IMG/VR virus record: IMGVR_UViG_3300023174_000293
Span: 1-43,173 of that record
Strand: one strand, 5' to 3'
Source: a virus
Taxonomy: Duplodnaviria; Caudoviricetes
DNA: 43,173 nt
Made by a program: the position numbers and the translations under genes. How positions within the stretch are numbered: the stretch's first letter is position 1; each line of letters starts with the position of its first letter. The notes beneath the pieces were generated by a model that searched no databases, was not told the origin of the DNA, and worked only from the letters and a program-made list of their open reading frames with translations. Positions 2 through 15,969 of the stretch are shown piece after piece.

Positions 2-55
2 AATATTAAACGCTGGAATACATTTACAAGAGATTGTGAATGTGTTGACGGCTGA
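2..55 (+). CDS. Putative attenuator leader peptide for tRNA block 1, 5' end outside the window (...NIKRWNTFTRDCECVDG*)
   Basis: Open frame AAT ATT AAA CGC TGG AAT ACA TTT ACA AGA GAT TGT GAA TGT GTT GAC GGC TGA. The last codons overlap the antiterminator strand and the codons match block-1 tRNAs. Confidence 0.7.
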   Translation, partial: NIKRWNTFTRDCECVDG

Positions 56-104
56 TATTGTGTTCTGACTTATCTTTTAACTTTGTGAACAATATCAACC
101 GTCA
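46..104 (+). promoter_or_regulatory. Antiterminator hairpin of attenuator 1
   Basis: TGACGGCTGATATTG (46-60) pairs with CAATATCAACCGTCA (90-104) at 14 of 15 positions and sequesters the 5' arm of the terminator. Confidence 0.75.
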
Positions 105-130
105 CCCTAAAAAAGTGACGGTTTTTTGTT
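97..130 (+). terminator. Intrinsic terminator of attenuator 1
   Basis: AACCGTCAC-cctaaaaaa-GTGACGGTT followed by a T-run. Confidence 0.85.
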
Positions 131-157
131 GACGAAATGACAAGGTGGTGTTAGAGT
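129..157 (+). promoter_or_regulatory. Sigma70-like promoter
   Basis: TTGACG-N17-TAGAGT. Confidence 0.5.
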
Positions 158-158
158 G

Positions 159-322
159 TTTTCATGATGAAGGACGGCATTTGGTTGTCCTTGAGTTTTT
201 TGAAGTTTTGAACTTATCAAAACATCCGTAGAGGCGAGCCAAGGAATAGGAGACGCCGGTCGTACTAGGAATAGTATGGCTACCAACGATAGGTGAAAAA
301 TCCATTGGAAGTAAGTGAAAAG
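159..322 (+). ncRNA. Putative multi-hairpin structured RNA
   Basis: TTTTCA/TGAAAA closing stem; hairpins AAGGACG/TGTCCTT, GTTTTGA/TCAAAAC, GGTCGTACT/AGTATGGCT; no convincing ORF. Confidence 0.4.
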
Positions 323-326
323 TTTT

Positions 327-409
327 GCCTTTGTGGCTCAGTGGCGACAGCACTGCTTTTGTAAAGCAGAATATAAACACCGGGGGTTCGAGTCCCTCCA
401 AAGGCTCCA
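327..409 (+). tRNA. trnT: tRNA-Thr(UGU) with a long (about 12 nt) variable region
   Basis: GCCTTTG/CAAAGGC-T-CCA; anticodon arm CTGCT-TT-TGT-AA-AGCAG; T-loop TTCGAGT. Confidence 0.9.
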
Positions 410-463
410 ATTTATAAAAATATTTTTCAAGTCTTCATACGTCTCCACAATATGTATTGATGT

Positions 464-1141
464 ATGAATAACATAAAATTAAATTGCGTAAACTGTAATA
501 ATGAATTTGAAAAATATGTGGGAGAATACAACAGACAGATAAAATCTGGTAGAACAAATTTCTTTTGTTGTTTAAGTTGTGCAATCTCACATCAGATGAA
601 ATGTAAATATACTAAAGAAAAAGAAAAGTATCATTCTAATCCAAAACTTTGCAAGTGTTGTGGAAATATCATTCCATACGAAGATATATCTTCCAAATTG
701 TTTTGTAATCAATCTTGTGCGGCGACATTTAATAATAAGAACAAAAAAAACAAGATTGTAAAGTGTTGCAAAAATTGTGGCAAATCTAATATAAAATCTA
801 TATACTGCTCACAGTCGTGTCAGAGTAAACTAACTTATACAAAAATAATGGACCAGATTAAATCGGGTAATTATCCATTTAAACGAAACAAACCGTATAA
901 AGAATATTTAATATCAAAACAAGGACACAAATGTCAGATGTGTTCATTTACTGAATGGGGAAATAAACCTATTCTTTTGATACTAGATCATGTAGATGGA
1001 AATAGTGATAATTTTAACTTGGACAATTTACGAGTTATATGTAGCAATTGTGATACGTTGACTTCTACATATAAAGGAAGAAACAAAGGCAAAGGAAGGT
1101 TTTCTAGAAAACAAAGATATCACGATGGTAAAAGTTTTTAA
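464..1141 (+). CDS. HNH endonuclease with N-terminal Cys-rich Zn-finger repeats (free-standing homing type)
   Basis: CxxC and FCxxSC repeats; C-terminal LDHVDGNSDNFNLDNLRVICSNC HNH motif. Confidence 0.9.
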   Translation: MNNIKLNCVNCNNEFEKYVGEYNRQIKSGRTNFFCCLSCAISHQMKCKYTKEKEKYHSNPKLCKCCGNIIPYEDISSKLFCNQSCAATFNNKNKKNKIVKCCKNCGKSNIKSIYCSQSCQSKLTYTKIMDQIKSGNYPFKRNKPYKEYLISKQGHKCQMCSFTEWGNKPILLILDHVDGNSDNFNLDNLRVICSNCDTLTSTYKGRNKGKGRFSRKQRYHDGKSF

Positions 1142-1146
1142 TTTTC

Positions 1147-1193
1147 GAGAGTATCGGTAGATGACCGAAGTTGATGCGTTCCATCAGACTCTC
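1147..1193 (+). ncRNA. Small three-way-junction RNA
   Basis: GAGAGT/ACTCTC enclosing TCGGT-agatg-ACCGA and TGATG-cgttc-CATCA. Confidence 0.45.
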
Positions 1194-1198
1194 ACAAT

Positions 1199-1273
1199 AT
1201 GGACGTGGCAGACAAGAAATGCAGCAGTCTCCAAAACTGCCCAATGTGGGAGCGTTACCCACCGTCCATGCCA
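1199..1273 (+). tRNA. trnW: tRNA-Trp(CCA) with non-canonical T-loop AGCGTTA
   Basis: ATGGACG/CGTCCAT-G-CCA; GCAGT-CT-CCA-AA-ACTGC. Confidence 0.88.
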
Positions 1274-1280
1274 ATTTCCA

Positions 1281-1394
1281 AATACATTAGATGAAGGCAA
1301 CGACCGTAGCTTAACTGGTAAAGCAACCGCACGAATAAGCGGGAGTCATTCAGTTCGAATCTGAATCAACTGTTGAAGTAGTAACTAATGTATT
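1281..1394 (+). ncRNA. tRNA-like RNA on a long terminal stem, no CCA
   Basis: AATACATTAG/CTAATGTATT outer stem; D-arm GCT-taactggtaa-AGC; CCGC/GCGG arm; T-arm TTCAG-TTCGAAT-CTGAA. Confidence 0.65.
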
Positions 1395-1549
1395 GACACT
1401 GATAGACATTGAAAATTATAGTCTGACGAGACTGTGATTAGTAAGTGGAACAATTGTGAAATCCAGTAAACATTTTATATATAAATAAAACTTGATCCGT
1501 TTGTATTAAAAAATATATAACCGAATATTTTTTTATATATAACAAAGTT

Positions 1550-2404
1550 ATGATTGTAAAAATTGATATTGATTATCCGAATTGCGGACTTGGAGATACT
1601 ATTTGTATTCTACCTTATGTAGAAATGTATCGTCAAACAACCAACAATGAAGTTTGGTTTAAAACAAGATTTTCTATGATAAAGGAGTTGGTGGTTAACA
1701 CGTATCCTTTAATTAAGTTTGGTGACCCTGATACATTTGATAAAATAATAGTAATTAAATTTAATCATGATGTACCGATGCAAAAATCGGCGGCTGACCG
1801 CTTAGGATTACCTAACGTGATACTTGATCCTAAATTTGATGTGATTAATAAACCACGTAACATTAAGCAGAAGTATGTAACATTATCAATGCAATCTTCG
1901 TTACAAAATCGTTATTGGAACTATAAAGATGGATGGGATATTTTGATTAAAGAACTGAACACCAAGTATAAATTGAGTGTGGTTTGTATTGACAAGTTTT
2001 CAAATTTTGGTAACGGAAAAACGTTTAATGAAACGCCTAGAAAAGCTATTAATAGAACCGGAGTTGAATTAAAAGATGCAATTAATTATATAGAGCATGC
2101 TGAATTTCATATTGGGTTGAGTAGTGGTTTATCGTGGGTAGCACATGCTGTTGGAAAACCGGTGGTAATCATGAAGAGTGCAACTGAAGATTGGTTTGAA
2201 TTTCAAGGCAATATGATTACTGTAAATAATGAATCTGTGTGTCATGGTTGTCTTAATCGTAGAGAAATAAATCGAGAAGAACTTGGTACATGGAATTTTT
2301 GTCCAGAACATTCTGGAACAAATCGTATGTTTGAATGTAGCAAAAGCATTACTCCAAAAATGTTTTTGGATAAGATGCAACCATTGTTAAAGAATTATAT
2401 TTAA
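1550..2404 (+). CDS. GT9-like glycosyltransferase resembling Aah/TibC-type O-heptosyltransferases
   Basis: GLGDTI N-terminal motif; HIGLSSGLSWVAHAVGKPVV; CHGC...C...C metal-binding motif. Confidence 0.8.
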   Translation: MIVKIDIDYPNCGLGDTICILPYVEMYRQTTNNEVWFKTRFSMIKELVVNTYPLIKFGDPDTFDKIIVIKFNHDVPMQKSAADRLGLPNVILDPKFDVINKPRNIKQKYVTLSMQSSLQNRYWNYKDGWDILIKELNTKYKLSVVCIDKFSNFGNGKTFNETPRKAINRTGVELKDAINYIEHAEFHIGLSSGLSWVAHAVGKPVVIMKSATEDWFEFQGNMITVNNESVCHGCLNRREINREELGTWNFCPEHSGTNRMFECSKSITPKMFLDKMQPLLKNYI

Positions 2405-2405
2405 T

Positions 2406-2479
2406 TCCCCTGTAGTGTCAAAGTAGCACGGTTGGCTGTTAACCAACTTGTGAAGGTGCGAGTCCTTCTGGGGGAGCCA
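2406..2479 (+). tRNA. trnN: tRNA-Asn(GUU), T-loop TGCGAGT
   Basis: TCCCCTG/TGGGGGA-G-CCA; GTTGG-CT-GTT-AA-CCAAC. Confidence 0.9.
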
Positions 2480-2483
2480 ATTT

Positions 2484-2640
2484 TATTCGGTGTCAGCAGA
2501 CTCACGATGCTGAAGAAAGACATATCAATTGCAAGTGATGTGGTCGTGGAGAGTGAGTGGGTTGATCTACAACACGATATCTGACTGTAGGTTATAATTA
2601 GATTGTGTAAGTCATCCCGTAACCCAACATCGAATAGCCA
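2484..2640 (+). ncRNA. 157-nt expanded tRNA-like RNA ending in GCCA
   Basis: TATTCGGTGT/ACATCGAATA-G-CCA; TCAGCA/TGCTGA arm; GACATATCA/TGATGTGGTC arm; TGGGTT/AACCCA arm with a large insert. Confidence 0.65.
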
Positions 2641-2649
2641 TCTTCTGAA

Positions 2650-2751
2650 GTGACTAATGCCGTTCTACCTGTGCATAGGTGAGGATAACTAGAACGTAAC
2701 GGTGAAAGAAGAACCTCAGTCACCGTCATATGGTGAAACAAACATATGACG
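2650..2751 (+). ncRNA. Structured RNA with a possible pseudoknot
   Basis: GTGACT/AGTCAC, GTTCT/AGAAC, ACCTG/TAGGT, GAGG/CCTC, then CGTCATATG/CATATGACG. Confidence 0.4.
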
Positions 2752-2769
2752 TTAAATTTTCAATAGTTT

Positions 2770-2886
2770 TATATGATGTATGATATATGCTGATTAAGGG
2801 TTAGGCAGTTGATCAAATTGCAATAGTATGAACATAAAGTGCCTTAAGAAATTTAAATAATTTCATTGTTCATTATACATTATATA
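2770..2886 (+). ncRNA. Structured RNA closed by a 15-bp stem
   Basis: TATATGATGTATGAT pairs with ATTATACATTATATA, including G-U pairs. Confidence 0.4.
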
Positions 2887-2893
2887 ATTTTTC

Positions 2894-2979
2894 GGGGTAT
2901 TATACTGATAAAGACGCAGAACGGTCTGTAAAACCGTTGCCTTCGGGCTGGGTAGGAGCATTACCTACATACCCCACCA
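2894..2979 (+). tRNA. trnY: tRNA-Tyr(GUA), T-loop AGCATTA
   Basis: GGGGTAT/ATACCCC-A-CCA; ACGGT-CT-GTA-AA-ACCGT; long variable arm. Confidence 0.9.
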
Positions 2980-3150
2980 AATTTACGGCACTTCTTAGCT
3001 GGAGTGCCAGAGTAGTTATCGGTAAATTGTGTGAGGGTAAGCTTTTAGAGTAGCACAAATACTTACTAAATGTACGTCGTCGAGACTGATGAATTAATGA
3101 AGCTATAACATACGCCTCCGTTGGAGGATTAATAACTATTTATATGGTAT

Positions 3151-3543
3151 ATGATTAAGTTAAAAGATTTGTTGACTGAAAACTCTGCGGAGAAATATTA
3201 TGTCCGTTTTGGTGATATTCCGTCTGGAGGATTATCAACCAATTGGTTCAAGACTGAAAAAGAAAAGGGAGTTAGTGTTTATGAAGTAAAATGGATTCCT
3301 AGTAAAAACAAGTGGTTTATTGTGGTAAATTCTGATGAAGGAATTGATACATTAATTTCTTTAGCTGGAGATTTTCAAGTTGGTAGAGGACGGCCAATTT
3401 ACCTTATAAAAGCTGTACCGACTAAATATTATGGCGCGGATGATGAACCATTATTAGACTCCTCTTCATTAAAAATTGTGAAGAAATTAGATCCCACTGA
3501 ACTTTGGAATCATGAATTAGGCGATGAATGGCATATAGGGTAA
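3151..3543 (+). CDS. Hypothetical protein with MIKLKDLLTE N-terminus; possible ADP-ribosyltransferase-like fold
   Basis: 130-aa ORF after a TATTTATA motif; YYVRFG...GVSVY resembles the R and S strands of ART folds. Confidence 0.6.
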   Translation: MIKLKDLLTENSAEKYYVRFGDIPSGGLSTNWFKTEKEKGVSVYEVKWIPSKNKWFIVVNSDEGIDTLISLAGDFQVGRGRPIYLIKAVPTKYYGADDEPLLDSSSLKIVKKLDPTELWNHELGDEWHIG

Positions 3544-3557
3544 AATATTATTTGATT

Positions 3558-3638
3558 TTGACAGGTGCTAGTGCGCAGGGCGTGGTAAAGGAGCAGGCGA
3601 CTCTGTTCCGAAAAGGTTCGATTCCTTTGACTTGTCAA
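3558..3638 (+). ncRNA. tRNA-like RNA without CCA
   Basis: TTGACAGGT/ACTTGTCAA stem; GGAGCAG/CTGTTCC arm; canonical T-arm AAAGG-TTCGATT-CCTTT. Confidence 0.6.
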
Positions 3639-3648
3639 TTACTTTAAT

Positions 3649-3723
3649 GGCTCAGTAGCTCCAATGTAGAGCAGAAGTCTGAAGAACTTCGTGTTGTCAG
3701 TTCAAGTCTGACCTGAGCCACCA
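3649..3723 (+). tRNA. trnF: tRNA-Phe(GAA)
   Basis: GGCTCAG/CTGAGCC-A-CCA; GAAGT-CT-GAA-GA-ACTTC. Confidence 0.92.
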
Positions 3724-3727
3724 TTTT

Positions 3728-3865
3728 TTCTGAACTAGGCGAAGGCAACGCTATACTCCGGTATCAACTATCCAAGTGAAAGCCCTTGAATGTGGCCAGA
3801 CGGTTAATTTGGGAATACGGAGAGTGGGTGCAGCTACCACTCATATAAAGTTGATTTGTTCAGAA
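3728..3865 (+). ncRNA. Long-stem RNA with GGCGAAGGCAACG motif, related to 1281-1394
   Basis: TTCTGAAC/GTTCAGAA outer stem; CAAC/GTTG inner stem; T-arm-like GAGTGG-gtgcagcta-CCACTC. Confidence 0.55.
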
Positions 3866-3876
3866 TATTTTTTAAT

Positions 3877-3956
3877 GCAAGTGAAGCTATCAAAGAACGG
3901 GCAACCGGCTCTTAACCGGACTATTCGTGTGGGAGCGTTACCCACCACTTGCACCA
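3877..3956 (+). tRNA. trnK: tRNA-Lys(CUU), T-loop AGCGTTA
   Basis: GCAAGTG/CACTTGC-A-CCA; CCGG-CT-CTT-AA-CCGG. Confidence 0.85.
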
Positions 3957-3961
3957 ATTTT

Positions 3962-4032
3962 GGCCATATAAAGTAATAGTAACCTAACCCTCTGTCTAAG
4001 GGAAGTCCGGGGAGCATAACCCCGTATGGTCG
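3962..4032 (+). tRNA. trnD: tRNA-Asp(GUC), T-loop AGCATAA, CCA not encoded
   Basis: GGCCATA/TATGGTC-G; CCCT-CT-GTC-TA-AGGG. Confidence 0.8.
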
Positions 4033-4041
4033 CATTTCAAT

Positions 4042-4115
4042 TGTCTCTTAGCTTAAAAGTAAAGCCCACAACTGATAATTGTGAGACGACGGAGCATTAC
4101 CGTCAGAGACAACCA
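4042..4115 (+). tRNA. trnI: tRNA-Ile(GAU), T-loop AGCATTA
   Basis: TGTCTCT/AGAGACA-A-CCA; CACAA-CT-GAT-AA-TTGTG. Confidence 0.88.
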
Positions 4116-4117
4116 TT

Positions 4118-4187
4118 TTTGTTAGTAAGTGTTGGGTTCAATTCCCTTTACTCAGTGATCACTGGTGAGAACATAACTACTAACAAA
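4118..4187 (+). ncRNA. Small RNA with a T-arm plus hairpin on a 10-bp stem
   Basis: TTTGTTAGTA/TACTAACAAA; GGG-TTCAATT-CCC; CAGT-gatc-ACTG. Confidence 0.55.
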
Positions 4188-4195
4188 TTCAATAT

Positions 4196-4274
4196 GGATC
4201 AGTATTGGCCACGCCTTCTAAGCGATAGGTGCATAATTGGACAAATGTGGGTTCGACTCCCACCTGATCCACCA
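4196..4274 (+). tRNA. trnR: Atypical tRNA-Arg(UCU) lacking a normal D-arm
   Basis: GGATCAG/CTGATCC-A-CCA; CGC-CT-TCT-AA-GCG; canonical T-arm; only about 9 nt between acceptor and the CGC anticodon stem; long variable region. Confidence 0.7.
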
Positions 4275-4326
4275 AATTTATAAAATAAACGAAACTATTT
4301 GCTCTATACAACATATTTATTTAGAT

Positions 4327-4962
4327 ATGATGAAATGTAAATGGTGTTTGCTTTATTTTGATTTAAATGATAAACCTAAAGGATGGGCAGCTGCGCACAC
4401 AAGATGGTGTGATCAAAATCCAAAAAAACAAGAGTATATAGATAAACTAAAATCAACAAATAGAACACATTTAATGTGTGAGTCAAAAAAAATAAGTGGG
4501 AAGACAAATCAATTCACAAAAGCAAAAATAAACGGATTTACTTTAATAAGTAAATTAAAAGGTAGAGAAAATATTGCTGCAAAAGGAAAGAAACATTCAG
4601 TTCAAAGTAAACTGAATATGAGCAAAGGATCTTTAAAATCAACACATAGAAGATTACGCAGAGGTATTATACAATATAAAGGAATAACACTTGATTCTAG
4701 TTGGGAATTAGAATTAGCTAAAAGATTGGATGATTTAAATATTAAATGGAATAGACCTGATCCATTAAAGTGGAAAGACTCCAATGGTTTCGAACACAAT
4801 TATTTTCCGGATTTTTATTTGGTAGATCATAATCTATATTTAGATCCAAAAAATCCGGGAGCATATAAAGTTCAAAAATCAAAAATTGATATATTACTTA
4901 ATACTTACAATAATATTGTGATCTTAAAAACTTTGGAAGAATGTAAAAATTTTAGAATTTAA
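4327..4962 (+). CDS. PD-(D/E)xK (TnsA-like) endonuclease with a NUMOD3-like motif
   Basis: GKKHSVQSKLNMS; SSWELELAKRLD...YFPDFYL...LDPK. Start moved to ATG 4327 because the track's start lies inside the tRNA. Confidence 0.8.
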   Translation: MMKCKWCLLYFDLNDKPKGWAAAHTRWCDQNPKKQEYIDKLKSTNRTHLMCESKKISGKTNQFTKAKINGFTLISKLKGRENIAAKGKKHSVQSKLNMSKGSLKSTHRRLRRGIIQYKGITLDSSWELELAKRLDDLNIKWNRPDPLKWKDSNGFEHNYFPDFYLVDHNLYLDPKNPGAYKVQKSKIDILLNTYNNIVILKTLEECKNFRI

Positions 4963-4964
4963 AT

Positions 4965-5042
4965 GCTGCCGTAGCTCAAATGGATTAGAGCATCTGACTA
5001 CGAATCAGAAGGTTGTAGGTTCGACTCCTACCGGCAGTACCA
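4965..5042 (+). tRNA. trnR: tRNA-Arg(ACG)
   Basis: GCTGCCG/CGGCAGT-A-CCA; TCTGA-CT-ACG-AA-TCAGA. Confidence 0.95.
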
Positions 5043-5084
5043 ATTCTTCATAATAACATGAGAATGTGATATATTTATAGTAAT

Positions 5085-5681
5085 ATGATTAAATTGGTAT
5101 CTATAATCAAAAACATTATTTTAGAAAATATAAAAAGCACGGAATTTGAACAATGGTTTAGTGGTAGTAAAATTGTAGATAATATGGGAAATCCACTACG
5201 AGTGTATCACGGAACCAATAAAGCCTTTTCAATTTTTAAATTATCACCAGAAGGTGTTCTTGGAAAAGGTATATATTTAACACCGGATCCAGAACGAGCA
5301 AGTGAGTATTCTTATGAATCTGCTTTTGGAGATCGTCGAGGTGAAGGTAACAATGTAATACCACTATATGTTTCTATTAAAAATCCATTGATTGTTCACG
5401 AAGATTCAAAATACAACAATCCATCTGTTGACGCGTTGGTTGCACTTGGAGTTGATCGTGAAAAAGCTGTAAATGTTGTAGATAAAGCATTTGAAGAAAA
5501 AGGAAATTTAACTGGTCAAATATATAAGAAAGCACAAATGCAAGGACACGATGGAATTGTTCTTTATAGAGACAATAAAATTTTTGAAATTGTAGCGTTT
5601 CGTTCAAATCAACTAAAATCAGCGATAACAAATAAAAATTATAGTTTTGATCCTGATATAACCAAAGAAACTTTAAAATAA
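5085..5681 (+). CDS. ADP-ribosyltransferase-like protein (polyvalent-protein ART type)
   Basis: GNPLRVYHGT...GKGIYLT...ASEYS...GHDGIV...EIVAF...QLKS motifs. Confidence 0.7.
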   Translation: MIKLVSIIKNIILENIKSTEFEQWFSGSKIVDNMGNPLRVYHGTNKAFSIFKLSPEGVLGKGIYLTPDPERASEYSYESAFGDRRGEGNNVIPLYVSIKNPLIVHEDSKYNNPSVDALVALGVDREKAVNVVDKAFEEKGNLTGQIYKKAQMQGHDGIVLYRDNKIFEIVAFRSNQLKSAITNKNYSFDPDITKETLK

Positions 5682-5687
5682 TTTAAT

Positions 5688-5766
5688 GGTGTATGTAGCA
5701 TAACTGGTTTAATGCCCCAGATTGTGAGTCTGGCAGATACGGGTTCGAATCCCGCCGTACACCCCA
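5688..5766 (+). tRNA. trnH: tRNA-His(GUG) with encoded G-1
   Basis: G-GTGTATG/CGTACAC-C-CCA; CCAGA-TT-GTG-AG-TCTGG. Confidence 0.93.
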
Positions 5767-5776
5767 TTTTATTAAT

Positions 5777-5867
5777 GCACGATGACGGAGCTAGAGAACT
5801 GAGATGTCTGCAAAACATCGTTGTATGAAAATACATATGCAAGGAGCGTAACCTTGATCGTGCTCCA
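5777..5867 (+). tRNA. trnC: tRNA-Cys(GCA) with a long variable arm and T-loop AGCGTAA
   Basis: GCACGAT/ATCGTGC-T-CCA; GATGT-CT-GCA-AA-ACATC; variable hairpin TGTAT-gaaa-ATACA. Confidence 0.82.
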
Positions 5868-5930
5868 AAATTAATTGACATCTTACTAAAAATTGTGACG
5901 GTTTTGTTACGAAATAATAGTTATGTTTGT

Positions 5931-6095
5931 ATGAGTTCTAATTCCTATAAGAAGTATCTTAAAATTCGTGACGAAATTCTCAAACACAAGTGGATAGAAT
6001 CTGAAAAAGCCATGAAAGATATAGGATTTGAACAGGCGTTGATTGACTGGATTAACAAACACCACCCTACGTGGAAAAGAGAAAATTGTGGTTGA
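5931..6095 (+). CDS. Small DUF4032-like protein
   Basis: EILKHKWIESEKAMKDIGFEQALIDW motif; ATG at 5931. Confidence 0.7.
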   Translation: MSSNSYKKYLKIRDEILKHKWIESEKAMKDIGFEQALIDWINKHHPTWKRENCG

Positions 6096-6120
6096 CATAA
6101 TCCATATTTGAGTATAGGAT
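6092..6120 (+). promoter_or_regulatory. Sigma70-like promoter
   Basis: TTGACA-N17-TAGGAT. Confidence 0.55.
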
Positions 6121-6129
6121 ATATCCACA

Positions 6130-6249
6130 ATGAAAGTTTTACTTCAAATAACAATCGGTCTGATAATTTACTGGTCCATCGTTTGGATGATCTGTAGATT
6201 TTGTGGACTGAATACCAAGTGTGAAGACAACACTCATGATGATCTTTGA
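6130..6249 (+). CDS. 39-aa single-pass membrane peptide (MKVLLQITIGLIIYWSIVWMICRFCGLNTKCEDNTHDDL)
   Basis: Hand translation; starts just after a promoter; hydrophobic N-terminal helix. Confidence 0.55.
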   Translation: MKVLLQITIGLIIYWSIVWMICRFCGLNTKCEDNTHDDL

Positions 6250-6255
6250 TCAAAC

Positions 6256-6331
6256 GCGTTCGTAGCTCAGCGGCAAGAGCAGTGGCCTTTTAAGCCATTG
6301 GTCGTGGGTTCGAATCCCACCGGACGCACCA
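6256..6331 (+). tRNA. trnK: tRNA-Lys(UUU)
   Basis: GCGTTCG/CGGACGC-A-CCA; GTGGC-CT-TTT-AA-GCCAT. Confidence 0.95.
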
Positions 6332-6337
6332 ATTTAA

Positions 6338-6474
6338 ATTGAAAAAGTTGTAGCGAATGGCATAGCGGGCGGTCAGTACCCAAAGTTGTAGACATGGGAA
6401 AATCTGCCAGTTAACGATATAACTACGAATAGACGTTAACTTATGTGGGTTCGAATCCCATCAACTTTTTCAAT
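6338..6474 (+). ncRNA. Class II tRNA-like RNA with a 13-bp acceptor stem, a hairpin inserted in the anticodon loop and no CCA
   Basis: ATTGAAAAAGTTG/CAACTTTTTCAAT; D-loop AATGGCATA; GGCGG/CTGCC with CCCA/TGGG insert; variable arm AGTTAACG/CGTTAACT; T-arm GTGGG-TTCGAAT-CCCAT. Confidence 0.75.
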
Positions 6475-6486
6475 CGATTTTTTGTG

Positions 6487-6539
6487 TTGACAAGTTCAAC
6501 ATTCTATGTATACTCGTTAGTATATTAGTTCTTTAACAA
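6487..6539 (+). promoter_or_regulatory. Sigma70-like promoter followed by a boxA-like element
   Basis: TTGACA-N16-TATACT, then GTTCTTTAACAA (6528-6539). Confidence 0.65.
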
Positions 6540-6543
6540 TTTA

Positions 6544-6832
6544 AGATAGTGGCGGAACAACCTTCCTTATAGGGGTAACGCACAATGGTGATGAAGAGTC
6601 ATTATTGGTTGGAGTAATAATATGTAGTGTAAGTCTATGGAGGATTGTGGGTCGTACAACCTATAATCCAAGCGTAACGACATCGTAGCTAAATATATAT
6701 GATATATCGTAGGTCGTTGTGGGAAACCAATCCCATCAATTATTAACATAGAGAGTAATTAACTTTATGGATTGTGGATGAATAACATAGCATATTGTGA
6801 AACTTGGAGGTAATCATTAGTCCTTCCTATTT
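6544..6832 (+). ncRNA. Putative ~290-nt structured RNA
   Basis: ORF-free; AGATAG/CTATTT ends; hairpins GGATTGTGGGT/ACCTATAATCC, ATTATT/AATAAT, GTAACGAC/GTCGTTGT. Confidence 0.45.
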
Positions 6833-6841
6833 GTATTTAAT

Positions 6842-6914
6842 GCGGGTCAGATGTAACTAGAGCATGCTCACATTCCAGTGAGTTGGTGAGGTGCGATTCC
6901 TCAGACCTGCTCCA
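6842..6914 (+). tRNA. trnG: Atypical tRNA-Gly(UCC) with a 6-nt anticodon loop and T-loop TGCGATT
   Basis: GCGGGTC/GACCTGC-T-CCA; CTCAC-ATTCCA-GTGAG. Confidence 0.72.
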
Positions 6915-6922
6915 ATTTTAAC

Positions 6923-6997
6923 GGTCCATTAGTCTAGTGGTTATGACACTGCCCTTTCACGGCGGGGACAAGAGTTCGATTCTCTTATGGACTACCA
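6923..6997 (+). tRNA. trnE: tRNA-Glu(UUC)
   Basis: GGTCCAT/ATGGACT-A-CCA; CTGCC-CT-TTC-AC-GGCGG. Confidence 0.93.
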
Positions 6998-7002
6998 TTT
7001 TT

Positions 7003-7060
7003 AGAGTATGGAAGTTCTCTTAAAAAACTTCTTGGTTGCGGGGTTAGCAAATGGTATACT
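7003..7060 (+). ncRNA. Small three-way-junction RNA resembling 1147-1193
   Basis: AGAGTAT/ATACTCT enclosing GAAGTT/AACTTC and TTGC/GCAA hairpins. Confidence 0.4.
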
Positions 7061-7274
7061 CTGTTTGTTGGGTGGATAGAGTATTCAATAGATACACCCA
7101 ACACAATTTTTACGGTTCTTTTGATAATTTTAGTTGGTGGAAAATAGAGTATCAGATTGATGGAACGCTGAAAATCGTACAAACCTGAGAAAAAAATGAT
7201 AATTGTGAGTCAATAAAAAACGCTAGTTCGTTGAAATAAACCTCCGTGTATTATCGAAACCAACACAATTTAAT

Positions 7275-7351: not shown

Positions 7352-7358
7352 TTTTAAT

Positions 7359-7430: not shown

Positions 7431-7434
7431 TTTA

Positions 7435-8656: not shown

Positions 8657-8667
8657 TTTTAAAAAAT

Positions 8668-9110
8668 GCCACCGTGATGAAATTGGCAGACATAAGGGAC
8701 TCAATGTTGTAATGACAATGCGGGTCCATACAATGGAAACATTGTATGAGTATGGTGTAAATTCGGTGAACGGGTAACAATGACAGATTTCAAAAGAATC
8801 TGCAATATGTAAATATATGTCCCCAACGCCGAGCCAAGCTGTAGAAATACAGAAGGTGTAGAGACTATAATCACCTATCTAAAGTTGTGTAGAACGGATA
8901 GTTTCAACTATCGTAATCACACACAAATATGATAAAGGCATAGTCCAGACCACAAACAAAATTAGTTCGCAAGACGGGTATCAAACTTCTCAATGCTGTT
9001 ATATGGCGAGAATAAGGGTATTTTTTAATTTTGGTAGTGAACACTATAGTGGTAGGTAAAATCCCTCGGCCCATAAAGCCATGCCGGTTCAAGTCCGGCC
9101 GGTGGTACCA
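8668..9110 (+). tRNA. trnL: tRNA-Leu(UAA) split by a group I intron (exons 8668-8701 and 9057-9110)
   Basis: GCCACCG/CGGTGGT-A-CCA; spliced anticodon arm AGGGA-CT|TAA-AA-TCCCT. Confidence 0.85.
8702..9056 (+). mobile_element. Group I intron (IC3-like, 355 nt, no ORF)
   Basis: P1 GGACT/GGTCC with a U-G pair at the 5' splice site; core motifs AAATTCGGTGAA, AACGCCGAGC, GTGTAGAGACTA, AGGCATAGTCC; terminal G at 9056. Confidence 0.88.
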
Positions 9111-9114: not shown

Positions 9115-9148
9115 AAAAAGCCAAACATTAAGTTGTTTGGCTTTTTTT
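9115..9148 (+). terminator. Intrinsic terminator ending tRNA block 1
   Basis: AAAAAGCCAAACA-ttaagt-TGTTTGGCTTTTTTT. Confidence 0.85.
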
Positions 9149-9356
9149 GTGCGTATATGTGGTCTAAAAAAACGTGGGGTTTGAAAAAAGTTAATAATAT
9201 GTATCAGTGGAAAAAGTCGTTGACAATTATGTTGTTTGACGGTATATTGTCCATATACATGATTGAGTGTGAATCTTTTGGTTCATATTAGTCTATAACA
9301 AACTTAATGAGTGTTAAGGTAGTTATAAAAAATGTAGTAACGAAAGAAAATAAAAT

Positions 9357-11998: not shown

Positions 11999-12022
11999 AA
12001 TTTGATGATATGTATTGTCAGA

Positions 12023-12097
12023 ATGAATATTTCATCCGTACAGTCAAGTGTAGCCAATGGACAACCAAGTCCATCACTACTCCCTAGCGCAAGCTAA
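12023..12097 (+). CDS. Putative attenuator leader peptide for tRNA block 2 (MNISSVQSSVANGQPSPSLLPSAS)
   Basis: 24-codon ORF; 20 of 23 non-start codons are S/V/Q/A/G/P/L, exactly the amino acids of block-2 tRNAs; followed by antiterminator and terminator. Confidence 0.75.
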   Translation: MNISSVQSSVANGQPSPSLLPSAS

Positions 12098-12101
12098 ACT
12101 A

Positions 12102-12141
12102 GACTAACGGTAAGAATTGCTTAAATAACAAACCGTTGGTC
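12102..12141 (+). promoter_or_regulatory. Antiterminator hairpin of attenuator 2
   Basis: GACTAACGGT (12102-12111) pairs over 10 bp with ACCGTTGGTC (12132-12141), the 5' arm of the terminator. Confidence 0.75.
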
Positions 12142-12165
12142 CAAAAGGCCAACGGTTTTTTGTTT
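12130..12165 (+). terminator. Intrinsic terminator of attenuator 2
   Basis: AAACCGTTGGTC-caaaa-GGCCAACGGTTT followed by TTTGTTT. Confidence 0.88.
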
Positions 12166-12171: not shown

Positions 12172-12204
12172 GTTCATTGACATTTTGAGATTTAGTGTTA
12201 GTAT
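12172..12204 (+). promoter_or_regulatory. boxA-like element overlapping a possible sigma70 promoter
   Basis: GTTCATTGACAT; TTGACA-N16-TAGTAT. Confidence 0.5.
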
Positions 12205-12221: not shown

Positions 12222-12296
12222 GCACGGTTAGCTCAGTGGTAGAGTAGCAGCCTTACACGCTGTTTGTCGGGGGTTCAAATCCCTCACCGTGTACCA
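12222..12296 (+). tRNA. trnV: tRNA-Val(UAC)
   Basis: GCACGGT/ACCGTGT-A-CCA; GCAGC-CT-TAC-AC-GCTGT. Confidence 0.93.
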
Positions 12297-12367
12297 ATTT
12301 TAATACTAAATTTTATATGGAAAATAACGTTGACAAAGATACTCAATACGAGTATGTTAGAAACAAG

Positions 12368-12481
12368 ATGATGACTGAAAATTATCCGTTGTACGCTTAC
12401 TACACAGCAATTCAAACGGTTGCCGATAGTATTCTCCCTAAACCGGAGACTCGGTACTTGGATATTCTTGGTATTGAGTAA
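12368..12481 (+). CDS. 37-aa hypothetical peptide (MMTENYPLYAYYTAIQTVADSILPKPETRYLDILGIE)
   Basis: Hand translation; follows TTGACA-N17-TATGTT at 12330-12358. Confidence 0.4.
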   Translation: MMTENYPLYAYYTAIQTVADSILPKPETRYLDILGIE

Positions 12482-12599
12482 TTGTTGGTATGGGCTTGAA
12501 ACTCTATCTGGTGTGCCCTTAAACACTTGATCGGTCACTGGGTGTTATGCTGAAATACAGAACCCATCTGGCGATAATGACATAAAGTATATAACAATT
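12480..12599 (+). ncRNA. Putative structured RNA
   Basis: AATTGTT/AACAATT ends; GGGC/GCCC and TGGGT/ACCCA internal stems. Confidence 0.4.
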
Positions 12600-12606
12600 T
12601 TTAAAT

Positions 12607-12682
12607 GGGTGGTTAGCTCAGTTGATAGAGCATTTGCTTTACACGCAAAATGTCATAGGTTTAAATCCTATACCACCTACCA
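12607..12682 (+). tRNA. trnV: tRNA-Val(UAC), second copy, with an A19/U56 elbow
   Basis: GGGTGGT/ACCACCT-A-CCA; TTTGC-TT-TAC-AC-GCAAA; D-loop GA, T-loop TTTAAAT. Confidence 0.88.
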
Positions 12683-12689
12683 TTTTAAT

Positions 12690-12774
12690 CGGAGTGTAGT
12701 CCGTAAATAGGGGCGGGCCAGTTTTGGGAACTGGATCGAAAGACCTGTAGGTGCAAGTCCTATCACTCCGACCA
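12690..12774 (+). tRNA. trnP: tRNA-Pro(UGG) with enlarged variable arm, T-loop TGCAAGT
   Basis: CGGAGTG/CACTCCG-A-CCA; CCAGT-TT-TGG-GA-ACTGG. Confidence 0.85.
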
Positions 12775-12838
12775 CTTTTTAATTAGTTTAAATCATAAAA
12801 GTCTGACTTTGAAAAATTTCAATACTATTTATTAATAT

Positions 12839-13771
12839 ATGAATAAAATTGAAAAAGAAATAAGTAGTAATATTGATAGATTTAAGTTAGTTGTAGATGA
12901 AAGCAATGGAACCGGAGACATTTGCCGTAAATATAATTTTTGTGACAATGGTAAATCAAGAAATTTAATAAAAAAATATATTTATGATTTGAATTTAAAT
13001 ACAAATCATTTTGGTTTAAAAAGTCATCCAAAAAAAAAGTATAAGACAATAAATAAAAAATGTCCTAATTGTCAAAAATTATTTGAAACATTAGAAAATC
13101 ATCCTAGAGAAAAGAAAAGTTGCTCTTATAAATGTGCAAATAATTTCTTTAAAAAAGAATACACTGATGAACGGAAAAAACAAATTAGTGAATCTCTTAG
13201 AAAATATTATGAATCAAATGTTGGTAAGCAAACAATTATAGATAAAAAACAAAATATTGTTCTAAAAAAAGAATGTAAATTTTGTGGAGAATTGTTCCAT
13301 CCAAAACAAAATAAAATAAAATATTGTTCCACATCGTGTACAAAAAAATGTCCTGATTATCGTAAAAAACTAAGTGATTCAACTAAACAACGAGTTATAA
13401 ACGGAACTCATAATGGTTGGAATTCAAGAAATATAATTTCATATCCAGAACAATTTTTTATGGGTGTATTAATTAATAACAATATTTCATATCAACATAA
13501 TAAACCCGTTGGAAAGTATTTTATAGATTTTGCTATTGTAGAAAAAAAAATAGCATTAGAGATTGATGGAAAGCAACATCAATATGAAAACAGAAAAAAA
13601 TCTGATGAAATAAAAGATAAGTTTTTAACAGAAAATGGATGGAAAGTTTATAGGATTTCTTGGAAATCAATTAACAATGAACTTGGTAAACTTTATATTA
13701 AAGATGAAATAAATAAATTTTTAGAAGTTTATAACGGGCGTATGGTGAAATGGCAGACACGTGAGTCTTAG
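12839..13771 (+). CDS. DUF559/Vsr-like PD-(D/E)xK endonuclease with Zn fingers
   Basis: CPNC, CSYKC, CKFC; SYPE...YFIDFAI...ALEIDGKQH...DKFLTENGWKVYRISW. Confidence 0.85.
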   Translation: MNKIEKEISSNIDRFKLVVDESNGTGDICRKYNFCDNGKSRNLIKKYIYDLNLNTNHFGLKSHPKKKYKTINKKCPNCQKLFETLENHPREKKSCSYKCANNFFKKEYTDERKKQISESLRKYYESNVGKQTIIDKKQNIVLKKECKFCGELFHPKQNKIKYCSTSCTKKCPDYRKKLSDSTKQRVINGTHNGWNSRNIISYPEQFFMGVLINNNISYQHNKPVGKYFIDFAIVEKKIALEIDGKQHQYENRKKSDEIKDKFLTENGWKVYRISWKSINNELGKLYIKDEINKFLEVYNGRMVKWQTRES

Positions 13772-13819
13772 GAACTCATGGAGAAATCCGTGTAGGTTCA
13801 AGTCCTACTACGCCCACCA
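13736..13819 (+). tRNA. trnL: tRNA-Leu(UAG)
   Basis: GGGCGTA/TACGCCC-A-CCA; TGAGT-CT-TAG-GA-ACTCA. Confidence 0.93.
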
Positions 13820-13828
13820 AATTTGCTA

Positions 13829-13911
13829 GTTTGAACGTAACCACAATACGGTGGACGAGGAGATAGACTCCGCTTAGACTCATAGAGAAATCTATGAAGG
13901 CGGCTTCAAAC
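13829..13911 (+). ncRNA. Putative cloverleaf-like small RNA
   Basis: GTTTGAA/TTCAAAC; CCAC/GTGG; GGAG/CTCC; TCATAG/CTATGA. Confidence 0.45.
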
Positions 13912-13998
13912 GGTAATCAATTTAAACAAGGTAATTAATATTAATAAGTCTGACGTTAGGTATAATGATCTGATATTTATTGACAGAGAAATATACCC

Positions 13999-14409
13999 AT
14001 GTCAAACACTTATTCATACAAAACTTGTAAAGTATGTGGAATTACTAAACGAAGTAACGCGCGTAAAGGGTATTGTAGTAATACTTGTTATGCTGTACAT
14101 CAAAGAAAAATTAAAGTTGATAAATGGTTGAATGGAGAACATGACGGTATGAGAGGAAAGACTTCAACCGCTAAATGGATCAAACAATATTTGATAGAAC
14201 AACGTGGACATCAATGTGAATGTTGTAAAAACACAATGTGGATGAACAAACAAATATTGTTAGAATTGGAACATGTAGATGGTAATTTTAAAAACAACAA
14301 AATAGATAATTTGAAACTTTTGTGTCTTAATTGTCATGGAATGACATCAACATATAGAGCAAAAAATAAAGTTGGAAGACCAAGAGAAAAATATTACAGA
14401 GAACTTTAA
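13999..14409 (+). CDS. HNH endonuclease
   Basis: CECC...LELEHVDGNFKNNKIDNLKLLCLNCH; resembles the C-terminus of 464-1141. Confidence 0.9.
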   Translation: MSNTYSYKTCKVCGITKRSNARKGYCSNTCYAVHQRKIKVDKWLNGEHDGMRGKTSTAKWIKQYLIEQRGHQCECCKNTMWMNKQILLELEHVDGNFKNNKIDNLKLLCLNCHGMTSTYRAKNKVGRPREKYYREL

Positions 14410-14410
14410 C

Positions 14411-14500
14411 GGTAGGATGGCAGAGTGGTTTATTGCATCGCTCTTGAAAAGCGAAGGGGTCTCAAAGCCTCCGGGGGTTCAAATCCCTCTTCTACCGCCA
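14411..14500 (+). tRNA. trnS: tRNA-Ser(UGA)
   Basis: GGTAGGA/TTCTACC-G-CCA; TCGCT-CT-TGA-AA-AGCGA; long variable arm. Confidence 0.93.
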
Positions 14501-14516
14501 TTTTTTGAAAATTCAC

Positions 14517-14606
14517 GGTTGGGTGGCAGAGTGGTCTAATGCAGAGCTTTGCTAAAGCTCCGGGGTTTAAAAGCCCCCGAAGGTTCAAATCCTTCCCCAA
14601 CCGCCA
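14517..14606 (+). tRNA. trnS: tRNA-Ser(GCU)
   Basis: GGTTGGG/CCCAACC-G-CCA; GAGCT-TT-GCT-AA-AGCTC. Confidence 0.93.
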
Positions 14607-14612
14607 CTTTAC

Positions 14613-14688
<76 letters not shown>

Positions 14689-14698
14689 GTTTTACAAC

Positions 14699-14772
14699 GC
14701 GGGTATAGCTCAACGGTAGAGTGCCAGTCTTCCAAACTGGCTATGCGGGTTCGATTCCCGCTACCCGCTCCA
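14699..14772 (+). tRNA. trnG: tRNA-Gly(UCC)
   Basis: GCGGGTA/TACCCGC-T-CCA; CCAGT-CT-TCC-AA-ACTGG. Confidence 0.95.
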
Positions 14773-14780
14773 ATTTTAAT

Positions 14781-14854
14781 TGCCCGATGGTGTAATGGTA
14801 GCACAAGAGACTTTGACTCTCTTTGTATTGGTTCAAATCCAGTTCGGGCAACCA
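14781..14854 (+). tRNA. trnQ: tRNA-Gln(UUG)
   Basis: TGCCCGA/TCGGGCA-A-CCA; AGAGA-CT-TTG-AC-TCTCT. Confidence 0.93.
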
Positions 14855-14863
14855 CTTTATATA

Positions 14864-14963
14864 TGTCGGTTAAGGGTGTAATTTTAGAGAAATTGTAATG
14901 AGTGATCATCAGTTACAGGAGTAAAAACTAGTGATCGAAAGATCCGTTCATCAAACACCGACA
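14864..14963 (+). ncRNA. Putative structured RNA
   Basis: TGTCGGT/ACCGACA ends; TGTAA/TTACA; GATC-gaaa-GATC. Confidence 0.45.
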
Positions 14964-14973
14964 ACAATTTATT

Positions 14974-15050
14974 CGGGGTGTATTGTCAATTAGGAGACGG
15001 CCTGATCTGGAGTCAGGAAGCTGCAGGTGCAAGTCCTGTCACCCCGACCA
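14974..15050 (+). tRNA. trnP: tRNA-Pro(UGG), second copy, with atypical C33 and A37
   Basis: CGGGGTG/CACCCCG-A-CCA (Pro identity); CCTGA-TC-TGG-AG-TCAGG; T-loop TGCAAGT. Confidence 0.78.
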
Positions 15051-15058
15051 TTTTATAT

Positions 15059-15144
15059 GCTAGCTGCAATCTGGTGAGAACGTTGGCTTAGGATTGAACC
15101 TAAGTTATCAGCGGTGATGGGTTCGATTCCCATAGTTTGCGCCG
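15059..15144 (+). ncRNA. tRNA-like RNA with no D-stem and an extended anticodon-position arm
   Basis: GCTAGCT/AGTTTGC; unpaired D-region GCAATCTGGTGAGAA; CGTTG..GCTTAGG/CCTAAGT..CAGCG; T-arm ATGGG-TTCGATT-CCCAT; ends GCCG. Confidence 0.6.
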
Positions 15145-15151
15145 TTTTTAT

Positions 15152-15265
15152 ACCAGACAATGGTAGAGGTTTGAACTTGGCTAGGTCCGAAACAATAACC
15201 AACGGCTGTGTTCGGCTAATAATCTGTGGGTTAAATATGCCCATAAAACCGTCAAGGTGTCTGGG
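15152..15265 (+). ncRNA. Putative structured RNA
   Basis: CCAGACA/TGTCTGG ends; ACGG/CCGT; TGGGT/GCCCA. Confidence 0.4.
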
Positions 15266-15280
15266 ATAAATTTTTGCTTT

Positions 15281-15404
15281 TGATCGTTAGTGATATAGAA
15301 TTATAAAACATCTCCGGTTTGTGGAGAAGAAGGGTGAAGTTGACGCTAGATAGACGTTGGAACAATAGTGAAATCCTCGTATATTCGCACCCCACGGTCA
15401 TCCA
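15281..15404 (+). ncRNA. 124-nt expanded tRNA-like RNA ending in TCCA
   Basis: TGATCGT/ACGGTCA-T-CCA; TCTCC-ggtttgt-GGAGA arm; GGGTG/CACCC T-stem holding a ~50-nt insert. Confidence 0.62.
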
Positions 15405-15453
15405 ATTTTTGTTTTTTGATTTGATTTGATTTATACTATGTATTTGTAGATAT

Positions 15454-15528
15454 GGGCTGTTAGTGATAGTGGTAGCACAGGAGCTTTGCAAGCTTTAGGG
15501 AAGAGTTCGATTCTCTTACGGTCCACCA
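15454..15528 (+). tRNA. trnA: tRNA-Ala(UGC), second copy
   Basis: GGGCTGT/ACGGTCC-A-CCA; GGAGC-TT-TGC-AA-GCTTT. Confidence 0.9.
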
Positions 15529-15542
15529 AATTTTAACTATAG

Positions 15543-15854
15543 ATGAAACAGAATAACCTAAATGAAAAGTATAGAGGTGTAAACAATTTCACACCTGATG
15601 AATTGGTTTATTATCTCAAAAAGGGTTATAATGCTTCGGATCTGGCAAAACTGTTTAAAACAACAACTAATGTAATTGAAAAAGCGTTAGTTGAGTATGA
15701 AATTGATCCACCTCACGTAACTACTAAAGAGGTGTTAGATTTATATAGAGCTGGTACGCCAACAGCTTTGATTGCTGATAAGTTAAATATTACTCCATTA
15801 GCTGTATTTTACAAACTAGTAAAAAGCAGAAAAGTAAGTTTTAAGAAAAAATAA
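15543..15854 (+). CDS. Tandem helix-turn-helix protein
   Basis: GYNASDLAKLFKTT and GTPTALIADKLNIT HTH-like repeats. Confidence 0.65.
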   Translation: MKQNNLNEKYRGVNNFTPDELVYYLKKGYNASDLAKLFKTTTNVIEKALVEYEIDPPHVTTKEVLDLYRAGTPTALIADKLNITPLAVFYKLVKSRKVSFKKK

Positions 15855-15895
15855 AGTTTATCGTAAAACAAATACTATATATTGTTAACCAGAGC

Positions 15896-15969
15896 GCGGG
15901 TATGATGTAGTGGTAGCCTACAACCTTGCCAAGGTCGATGTGAGGGTTCGATTCCCTCTACCCGCTCCA
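15896..15969 (+). tRNA. trnG: tRNA-Gly(GCC)
   Basis: GCGGGTA/TACCCGC-T-CCA; ACC-TT-GCC-AA-GGT. Confidence 0.9.

Follow-up and report, generated by a model that had tools for sequence, protein, structure and literature searches.

The leaders of trp, thr and pheST operate by ribosome stalling, and the same principle is probably used by two short leader open reading frames (ORFs), each heading a block of tRNA genes, in the virus record IMGVR_UViG_3300023174_000293. The whole record of 43,173 bases was analysed (the window; G+C ~33 %); it is a fragment of a large tailed phage, with genes for a baseplate-wedge protein, PhoH, Hsp20 and an HNH endonuclease. In Salmonella, read-through at HisL is set by the speed of the ribosome on the short leader, not by the peptide, and the untranslated default is termination, as is predicted for the phage leaders (PMC4046918). 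HisL has seven consecutive codons of one amino acid and serves an amino-acid pathway, whereas the phage leaders have no long runs and sample a set of amino acids. The ilvBNC leader of Corynebacterium glutamicum (IlvL) is an ORF near the transcription start with Ile, Val and Leu codons, followed by the choice between anti-antiterminator, antiterminator and terminator, and a pause at the control codons leads to read-through (PMC11857589). The phage leaders share with it the short and presumably near-leaderless ORF, the sampling of several amino acids and, by prediction, the three-hairpin logic. In contrast, ilvBNC lies on a bacterial chromosome, encodes biosynthetic enzymes and is sampled for three amino acids; the phage leaders precede tRNA genes, sample 4-10 amino acids mostly once or twice, divide the code between two leaders and have a second promoter behind the terminator. 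A leaderless ORF as amino-acid sensor is also found in the mycobacterial polycysteine short ORFs, but these act on translation of the next gene via its ribosome-binding site, respond to one amino acid and belong to cysteine genes (10.1101/834739). The trn operon of Anabaena PCC 7120 resembles the phage blocks as a long tRNA array and is induced by impaired translation; it is plasmid-borne and under the ribbon-helix-helix repressor TrcR, and the accessible portions of both reports mention neither codon-specific sensing nor a split of the code (PMC8421152, PMC10272220). Phage T5 provides a motive for replacement tRNAs after host cleavage, as its tRNA-Lys rescues it from PARIS; leader-based regulation is not described in the accessible portion of that paper, and 'attenuat' is absent from the main text (PMC11464382). 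An earlier note on this DNA knew of no description of such control for phage tRNA arrays. In the literature searched, with most subscription papers and supplements outside its scope, we found neither leader-peptide control of tRNA genes nor a paper in which transcription attenuation is linked to phage tRNA; the words 'attenuat', 'leader' and 'terminator' are absent from a survey of such tRNAs published in 2026 (PMC13015707).

Both tRNA blocks begin with the architecture given in the earlier note: a short ORF, an antiterminator strand at or after its stop codon and an intrinsic terminator. A protector hairpin is predicted in addition, and sigma-70-type promoters downstream of both terminators had been overlooked (Table 1). 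We consider it probable that these are two multivalent leader-peptide attenuators, each raising transcription of the tRNA block behind it if decoding of its codons slows down. The system is real; it places a known attenuation mechanism into a new setting, the tRNA genes, with a function that we infer. Comparison with relatives strongly supported the leader-peptide attenuator and its match to the array at the level of amino acids, but tracking of codons and anticodons between genomes was not supported, nor were a general isoacceptor match and the turning on of the arrays, which had been proposed as well. The leaders have the sequence-level features of the his and ilvBNC attenuators and may be expected to function like them; judged from sequence, they are presumably translated and regulatory. 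In the narrow sense, an amino-acid operon attenuator controls biosynthetic or synthetase genes and all transcription runs through its terminator. The phage leaders are not of this kind, because they precede tRNA genes and the terminator can be bypassed from a second promoter.

The two arrays are sorted by amino acid. The 22 tRNA genes predicted by ARAGORN all lie on the + strand and form two blocks, 327-8580 and 12222-15969. Lowering the threshold and using homology brought in genes for Tyr, Lys(CUU), Asp and Cys as well as a second Pro-like gene and a Leu(UAA) gene, which is interrupted and ends at 9110. The tRNA genes of array 1 specify Thr, Trp, Asn, Tyr, Phe, Lys (two), Asp, Ile (two), Arg(ACG), His, Cys and Glu, besides Leu(CAA), the interrupted Leu(UAA) and Met-like genes; endonuclease ORFs and other RNAs are scattered among them. 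With Val, Pro, Leu, Ser, Ala, Gly and Gln defined as set 2 and the remaining 13 amino acids as set 1, the 21 loci with two leaders had 306 of 323 array-1 calls in set 1 and all 191 array-2 calls in set 2.

The leaders are divided in the same manner. In leader 2, 20 of the 23 codons after Met belong to set 2 and all seven of its amino acids are present, as had been noticed; two Asn codons and one Ile codon had been missed. The background of set 2 is 39.9 % of 10,254 codons in 32 window ORFs. None of 9550 windows of the same length from these ORFs and none of 6586 open base shuffles reached the match of leader 2, and its other two frames had no such bias. Leader 1 has 15 of 17 codons in set 1 (binomial P 0.012), a value reached by 50 of 3939 open-frame base shuffles; its first 13 codons all belong to set 1, which 12 of 9870 windows attained. 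The composition of the two leaders differs with a Fisher P of 2.5e-6. All ten amino acids listed for leader 1 in the earlier note (N, I, K, R, W, T, F, D, C, E) have tRNAs in array 1, those for Asp and Lys(CUU) being found only by the lowered threshold or homology; the overlooked Val and Gly codons sit in the antiterminator strand. Array 1 additionally contains Tyr, His, Leu(CAA), interrupted Leu(UAA) and Met-like genes. The record, and with it the window, breaks off inside leader 1, so that no start codon of this ORF is visible. Two loci, L138 and L143, are identical to it in the visible codons, to which they add six at the 5' end (Met, Asn, His, Leu, Tyr, Thr); in the window, such codons would account for the tRNAs for His, Leu and Tyr, which have no counterpart in the visible part. 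Each leader is a short ORF heading a transcription unit, with the start of leader 1 visible only in relatives.

Relatives were gathered from IMG/VR and metagenome contigs via four handles: a terminator-like pattern, the inter-array gene, a leader-1 pattern and an RNA motif heading array 2. Retrieval by the leader-1 pattern is circular for leader 1, the RNA motif is independent of the leaders. After merging of exact overlaps, 144 loci were obtained, many of them one phage sampled repeatedly. Script-based calling yielded 53 distinct leader sequences, of which 16 are type 1 and 37, including leader 2 of the window, type 2. The RNA motif gave 136 loci; 18 outside the family and 16 with too little upstream DNA were excluded, and leader 2 was present in 100 of the 102 left, 87 called by the script and 13 recognized by eye (five standard, one divergent, seven fused).

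The codon match is concentrated in the part of the leader in which stalling would have an effect. Folding was modelled on the nascent RNA of 54 leaders, with the ribosome footprint masked (up to 12 nt beyond the A-site codon). In this model the antiterminator captures the 5' arm of the terminator at early stalls and largely releases it past a sharp boundary, which in the window follows the Asp codon in leader 1 and coincides with the two final codons in leader 2; with the ribosome at the stop codon the antiterminator is blocked, and stalling earlier on leaves it free. Counted from codon 5 up to the boundary, 200 of 201 codons matched the set in 17 type-1 leaders and 407 of 416 in 36 type-2 leaders (the fused L242 excluded). 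Past the boundary the match was 96/156 (62 %) and 90/115 (78 %), at window backgrounds of 60 % and 40 %. When each 85 %-identity cluster was represented by a single leader (seven clusters for type 1, where the truncated leader of the window forms its own, and nine for type 2), the counts before and after the boundary were 79/80 versus 37/59 (Fisher P 7e-9) and 112/116 versus 17/27 (P 7e-6). Control codons matching the downstream tRNA supply are placed before the antiterminator strand, except for codons 2-4. Substitutions in the sensing zone remain within the set across the seven and nine clusters, and the third positions of conserved Thr, Lys and Arg columns vary. Indels in the core of leader 1 are multiples of three; in its tail the nucleotides are nearly fixed while the reading frame differs among relatives. 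In ten loci an additional stretch of ORF, mostly ~40 codons long, is inserted in frame before the tail of leader 2 with the stop codon unmoved, an alteration that a ribosome sensor would tolerate and a peptide product would not. The fused partner is the end of a small unknown ORF (L172, L177, L193, L235, L242, L252, L253, L265, L282 and L287), and the junction in L193 has grown into tandem repeats of Val-Ser-Gln-Pro-Val-Thr.

At both leaders the predicted folds and their conservation describe two mutually exclusive structures, an antiterminator and an intrinsic terminator, the latter with a U tract; the antiterminator overlaps the terminator 5' arm. Terminators and antiterminators of the window had z-scores of -3.4 to -6.4 against 200 shuffles. 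Duplexes of the terminator 5' arm with the upstream 57 nt had a mean energy of -19.9 kcal/mol in 19 type-1 and -15.7 kcal/mol in 51 type-2 sequences, at about -8 for shuffles and a mean of -8.4 kcal/mol for 101 other terminators in the same loci, several of whose best scorers are uncalled leaders. The duplex was stronger than all 50 shuffles in 18/19 type-1 and 37/51 type-2 sequences and in 6/101 of the other terminators. In an alignment of 19 leader-1 sequences, in which kinship inflates pairing and co-variation counts, the terminator was 98.8 % paired with three of nine pairs changed on both sides. The antiterminator helix was also 98.8 % paired, with one two-sided change, not clearly above shuffles (30/500); pairing was 97.7 % in the inner hairpin, which has a single co-varying pair, and 80.9 % in the lower protector stem, not above shuffles. 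The antiterminator strand changes together with the terminator in L144, L160 and L238, and co-variation extends over all three strands of the switch. A protector or pause hairpin was predicted in both leaders of the window and in leader 1 of L128. When the RNA was folded stepwise with no ribosome (leader 1 of L128, leader 2 of the window), the protector formed first and the end state was protector plus terminator; at full length, the terminated forms are the most stable. In leader 1, immediately before the 3' arm emerges, the antiterminator is slightly favoured (-31.4 versus -29.7), so that termination is the likely, not the sure, default of the untranslated leader.

Table 1. Predicted leader, switch, promoter and tRNA features in the window
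Feature	Position	Strand	Basis or remark
Leader 1 ORF, 17 sense codons and TGA (53-55)	2..55	+	sensing codons predicted to ~34
Protector (1:2) hairpin of leader 1, predicted	1..60	+	inner hairpin 17-46, candidate pause hairpin
Antiterminator 1, predicted (46-61 with 89-104), spans the stop codon	46..104	+	duplex -21.1 versus -7.7 kcal/mol shuffled
Intrinsic terminator 1, predicted	97..127	+	hairpin 97-123, then T run
Sigma-70-type promoter, extended -10, downstream of terminator 1	129..157	+	promoter scan; 16/18 relatives
tRNA array 1	327..9110	+	ARAGORN, Rfam, lowered threshold, homology
Predicted terminator closing array 1, hairpin and T run	9115..9150	+	-19 kcal/mol, z -5.8
AT-rich motif 6 nt upstream of leader 2 ATG, candidate phage-type promoter	12009..12016	+	
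Leader 2 ORF, 24 codons	12023..12097	+	
Protector (1:2) pairing of leader 2, predicted (12036-12045 with 12102-12110)	12036..12110	+	
Antiterminator 2, predicted (12102-12111 with 12132-12141), 4 nt past the stop codon	12102..12141	+	duplex -15.3 versus -7.1 kcal/mol shuffled
Intrinsic terminator 2, predicted	12130..12162	+	hairpin 12130-12158, then T run; -23.3 kcal/mol, z -6.3
Sigma-70-type promoter, extended -10, downstream of terminator 2	12177..12204	+	51/51 distinct downstream regions including the window
tRNA array 2: Val (two), Pro, Leu(UAG), Ser (two), Ala (two), Gly (two), Gln	12222..15969	+	

A number of observations, set out in this and the following two paragraphs, weigh against the proposed codon-specific attenuation or weaken the earlier interpretation. 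An isoacceptor-level match, claimed earlier from a list of codon-anticodon pairs that proved to be a selection, does not hold as a general rule. Given the amino acids, leader 1 has 6 Watson-Crick-cognate codons among 13, at an expectation of 6.7 (P 0.80). In leader 2 such codons are modestly enriched, with 13 among 20 at an expectation of 8.1 (P 0.017); the listed pair AGA/UCU involves a doubtful tRNA, described below. Both Leu codons of leader 2 are CUN, the box read by Leu(UAG) of array 2 (P 0.06). Co-variation in related phages was kept as a leader/array match of amino acids; placement of tRNAs between arrays was not tracked by the Val and Gln codons among the loci compared. Val occurs in codons 2-4 of 16 of 20 leader-1 loci, only three of which have an array-1 Val tRNA. 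For Leu, 54 loci with complete array 2 were examined and 16 partial loci set aside. Sensing-zone UUR codons occurred in seven loci, all with Leu(CAA/UAA) in array 2; three loci had the tRNA without the codon and 44 had neither. These seven represent two lineages, the partial locus L013 violates the rule, UUA is common in codons 2-4 regardless, and only two or three independent Leu events are in the data. In leader 1, UUG stands at codon 4 in two of three loci with those Leu tRNAs in array 1 and before the tail in none of 17 others. Tracking of Leu codons and tRNAs is suggestive only.

Further points concern the codons and loci themselves. Codons 2-4 are at background (30/48 in type 1, 50/108 in type 2), though the mask model counts them as sensing. 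The zone rule and the exclusion of codons 2-4 were chosen post hoc; with these codons included the match is 230/249 and 457/524. Five of the nine type-2 cluster representatives sample only 4-5 of the seven array-2 amino acids, the Cys and Glu codons of leader 1 lie at or past the predicted boundary, and RNA pairing also constrains some leader codons. Conservation of leader 1 is partly circular because 18 of 22 leader-1 loci match the leader-based search pattern; the other four lie outside it, yet have the same codon composition. Two of the 102 loci, L243 and L266, kept array 2 and lack an intact leader 2. Several of these points would be expected if the attenuators depended on ribosomes but sensed translation generally, via elongation speed, ribosome supply or coupling, the codon split being historical or a by-product of base composition or hairpins. 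Unmatched codons 2-4, core codons paired in conserved hairpins, a leader 1 without isoacceptor signal, untracked Val and Gln codons and ~40 mixed codons upstream in the fused leaders all agree with such a general sensor. We nevertheless regard it as unlikely. The codon match ends where the ribosome ceases to matter, also on cluster representatives, open-frame base shuffles rarely or never reached the match of the window leaders (50/3939 and 0/6586), and the sensing-zone substitutions stay within the set.

The last group of these points concerns transcription of the arrays. Past the terminator, a sigma-70-type promoter, mostly with extended -10, follows within 80 nt in 16/18 and 51/51 regions (67/69), compared to 95/900 and 283/2550 of the shuffles (~11 %). 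Array 1 has further promoter-like sites inside (1393, 6487, 8346 and 8598), and its inserted endonuclease ORFs carry the upstream AT-rich motif that is treated below; single promoter-like sites are weak because the scan gave 89 sites versus 76.6 expected. Given the downstream promoters, the attenuators cannot be assumed to gate the arrays, and in place of turning them on, as had been claimed, the switch likely tops them up. A conserved strong promoter directly behind each terminator, the stability of the terminated folds and the array 2 of L243, which has only a gene terminator and the promoter, would suit plain terminators of small upstream transcripts (small RNA or peptide genes) that insulate arrays driven only by the sigma-70 promoters. 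We hold this to be quite improbable, since no competing upstream strand accompanies the ordinary terminators of the same loci, the peptide varies without constraint in length and in the frame of its tail, a better fit to a sensor than to a product, and the codon match would be left unexplained. RNA-library contigs bridging the terminators argue weakly in the same direction. Four RNA runs were compared over 1-16100 as assembled contigs only; no run contained half of the sequence words searched for, and gaps in coverage were given no weight as evidence. Contigs of ~95 % identity bridged terminator 2 (12058-12577 and 12059-12517 in one study, 12034-12488 in another), crossing also the gap between the terminator and the start of the downstream promoter, and one contig spans 1-250 and bridges terminator 1. 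These contigs are strandless, without level, from related strains and possibly DNA, so that they give a weak hint of natural read-through. A switch thrown by a protein or RNA, such as a phage antiterminator or a T-box-like tRNA contact, with the ORF incidental, is hardly credible: alternative folds alone do not identify the trigger and the arrays contain several unexplained structured RNAs, but neither a T-box nor a riboswitch matched in Rfam at gathering score or E up to 5, and start, frame and stop position are conserved, with the stop retained in the in-frame fusions.

Upstream of the leaders, 68 distinct regions contained no Shine-Dalgarno-like word. An AT-rich heptamer ends 6-10 nt before the ATG; this motif precedes 13 of 32 window ORF starts versus 9 of 940 other ATGs. 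The motif helped to select leaders, so its presence in relatives is not independent evidence. It may be a phage-type promoter that gives leaderless or near-leaderless RNA. The candidate phage sigma factor for it (24029-24922) had no Pfam or PHROG match; one atlas cluster at rank 25 has Sigma70_r2 in 21 % of its members, which is a lead only. With a phage-type promoter upstream and a host-type promoter downstream, the attenuated input would belong to a different stage.

The proposed attenuation builds on two amino-acid-sorted arrays, two composition-matched leaders and three pairings predicted to exclude each other. Transcription from the phage-type promoter would produce a leaderless RNA, on which a ribosome loads and follows the polymerase. 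According to the folding predictions, the antiterminator strand is covered once a ribosome has arrived at the stop codon, and the terminator forms; an untranslated RNA would fold into protector and terminator, and transcription would stop as well. Delay of the ribosome at any of the ~10-19 sampled codons would leave the antiterminator free and let transcription enter the array. The host-type promoter behind each terminator would feed the array independently, and the attenuator would be a conditional second input, possibly later in infection. Extra tRNA would speed up decoding of those codons, a negative feedback on each half of the tRNA pool that would act independently of the cause of slowing, be it cleavage, decay, poor charging or load. 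Any of these may be the natural trigger, and an anti-defence purpose is conceivable. A wider interpretation seems possible to us but is held with reserve: the two codon samplers would jointly cover the genetic code and audit the tRNA pool, damage or shortage in one half calling up more of that half, as a self-adjusting counter-defence against tRNA-cleaving immunity, and the leaders would be rewritten as tRNA genes move, at which the Leu UUR codons hint.

Why phages carry tRNA genes has long been open, with codon compensation, replacement after cleavage and general pool decay under discussion. A sensor records what the phage monitors; the leaders therefore make the question testable, and the 150-nt element in a reporter could distinguish starvation, anticodon nucleases and load. 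If the proposed attenuation is true, the principle extends from amino-acid enzymes to tRNA genes, where the product itself cures the stall as a direct feedback. The leaders also offer compact natural sensors for codon sets.

The system was traced beyond the gathered loci. In a bacterial and archaeal genome collection the leader-1 pattern had 19 matches, none followed by a terminator or tRNA array, and blastn of the leader-1 region of a relative against 50,697 phage records gave only four short chance-level matches. The nearest cultured phages by one protein are the Flavobacterium immuto phages and Microcystis phage Mel-JY01 (35-40 % identity); they had three and one Rfam tRNA matches, respectively, and no arrays, their upstream regions not being folded. 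A 484-kb uncultured record had 28 matches in the same comparison. RNA runs containing the window stretch are mainly metatranscriptomes of lakes, rivers and other freshwater. In a more distant phage (L078, ~1400-1540), a similar leader and terminator precede a block of Gln, Cys, Ile, Lys, Arg and Thr tRNAs, and the leader is enriched in Thr, Lys, Asn, Arg, Cys and Gln.

Several elements within the arrays deserve mention. The putative tRNA-Arg(UCU) at 4196-4271 scored 29.8 bits in Rfam at a cut-off of 29; it was not called by ARAGORN, has no cloverleaf fold and mismatches the Arg(UCU) of relatives, and was rejected as a normal tRNA. The region 4116-4271 is a tRNA-like element with a UCU loop and without a normal D arm, located where relatives carry tRNA-Arg(UCU); L144 has a 95 % identical copy, and the region partly matches 22 loci. 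In tRNA-Leu(UAA) (8668-9110), an insert of ~350 nt splits the anticodon loop, and the halves align to the intact gene of a relative. The insert, which we take from its motifs to resemble a group I intron, had no Rfam match at E up to 5; RNA-library contigs cover 8704-9056 in this region. Five endonuclease-like ORFs of HNH or restriction-like type lie between tRNA genes (464-1141, 4327-4962, 7593-8372, 12839-13771 and 13999-14409), the last assigned by motif only; four of them carry their own upstream motif. Array 1 also includes an ORF with an ART-PolyVal (ADP-ribosyltransferase) domain (5085-5681). Between the arrays, 9357-10058 encodes a secreted-looking protein with C-terminal Phe, conserved in nine viral loci and without Pfam or PHROG match, which in our reading resembles an outer-membrane beta-barrel.

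Non-coding elements are frequent as well. A second hairpin with T run (170-200) lies between the downstream promoter of leader 1 and an element at 207-326 upstream of tRNA-Thr, a homolog of which precedes array 2 in L022, L067 and L013. The conserved element heading array 2 (12485-12600), which served as a handle for gathering relatives, was matched in 126 merged loci and had no Rfam match. Behind the promoter-like site 6487-6514, the non-coding stretch 6521-6780 had a weak Rfam match to manA (22 bits, cut-off 55) and very deep short contigs in two RNA runs. Further unnamed stretches, tRNA-shaped or otherwise structured, are located at 1296-1480, 2484-2760, 6340-6475, 6843-6915, 7277-7520 and 15059-15143, and most of them are conserved in relatives.

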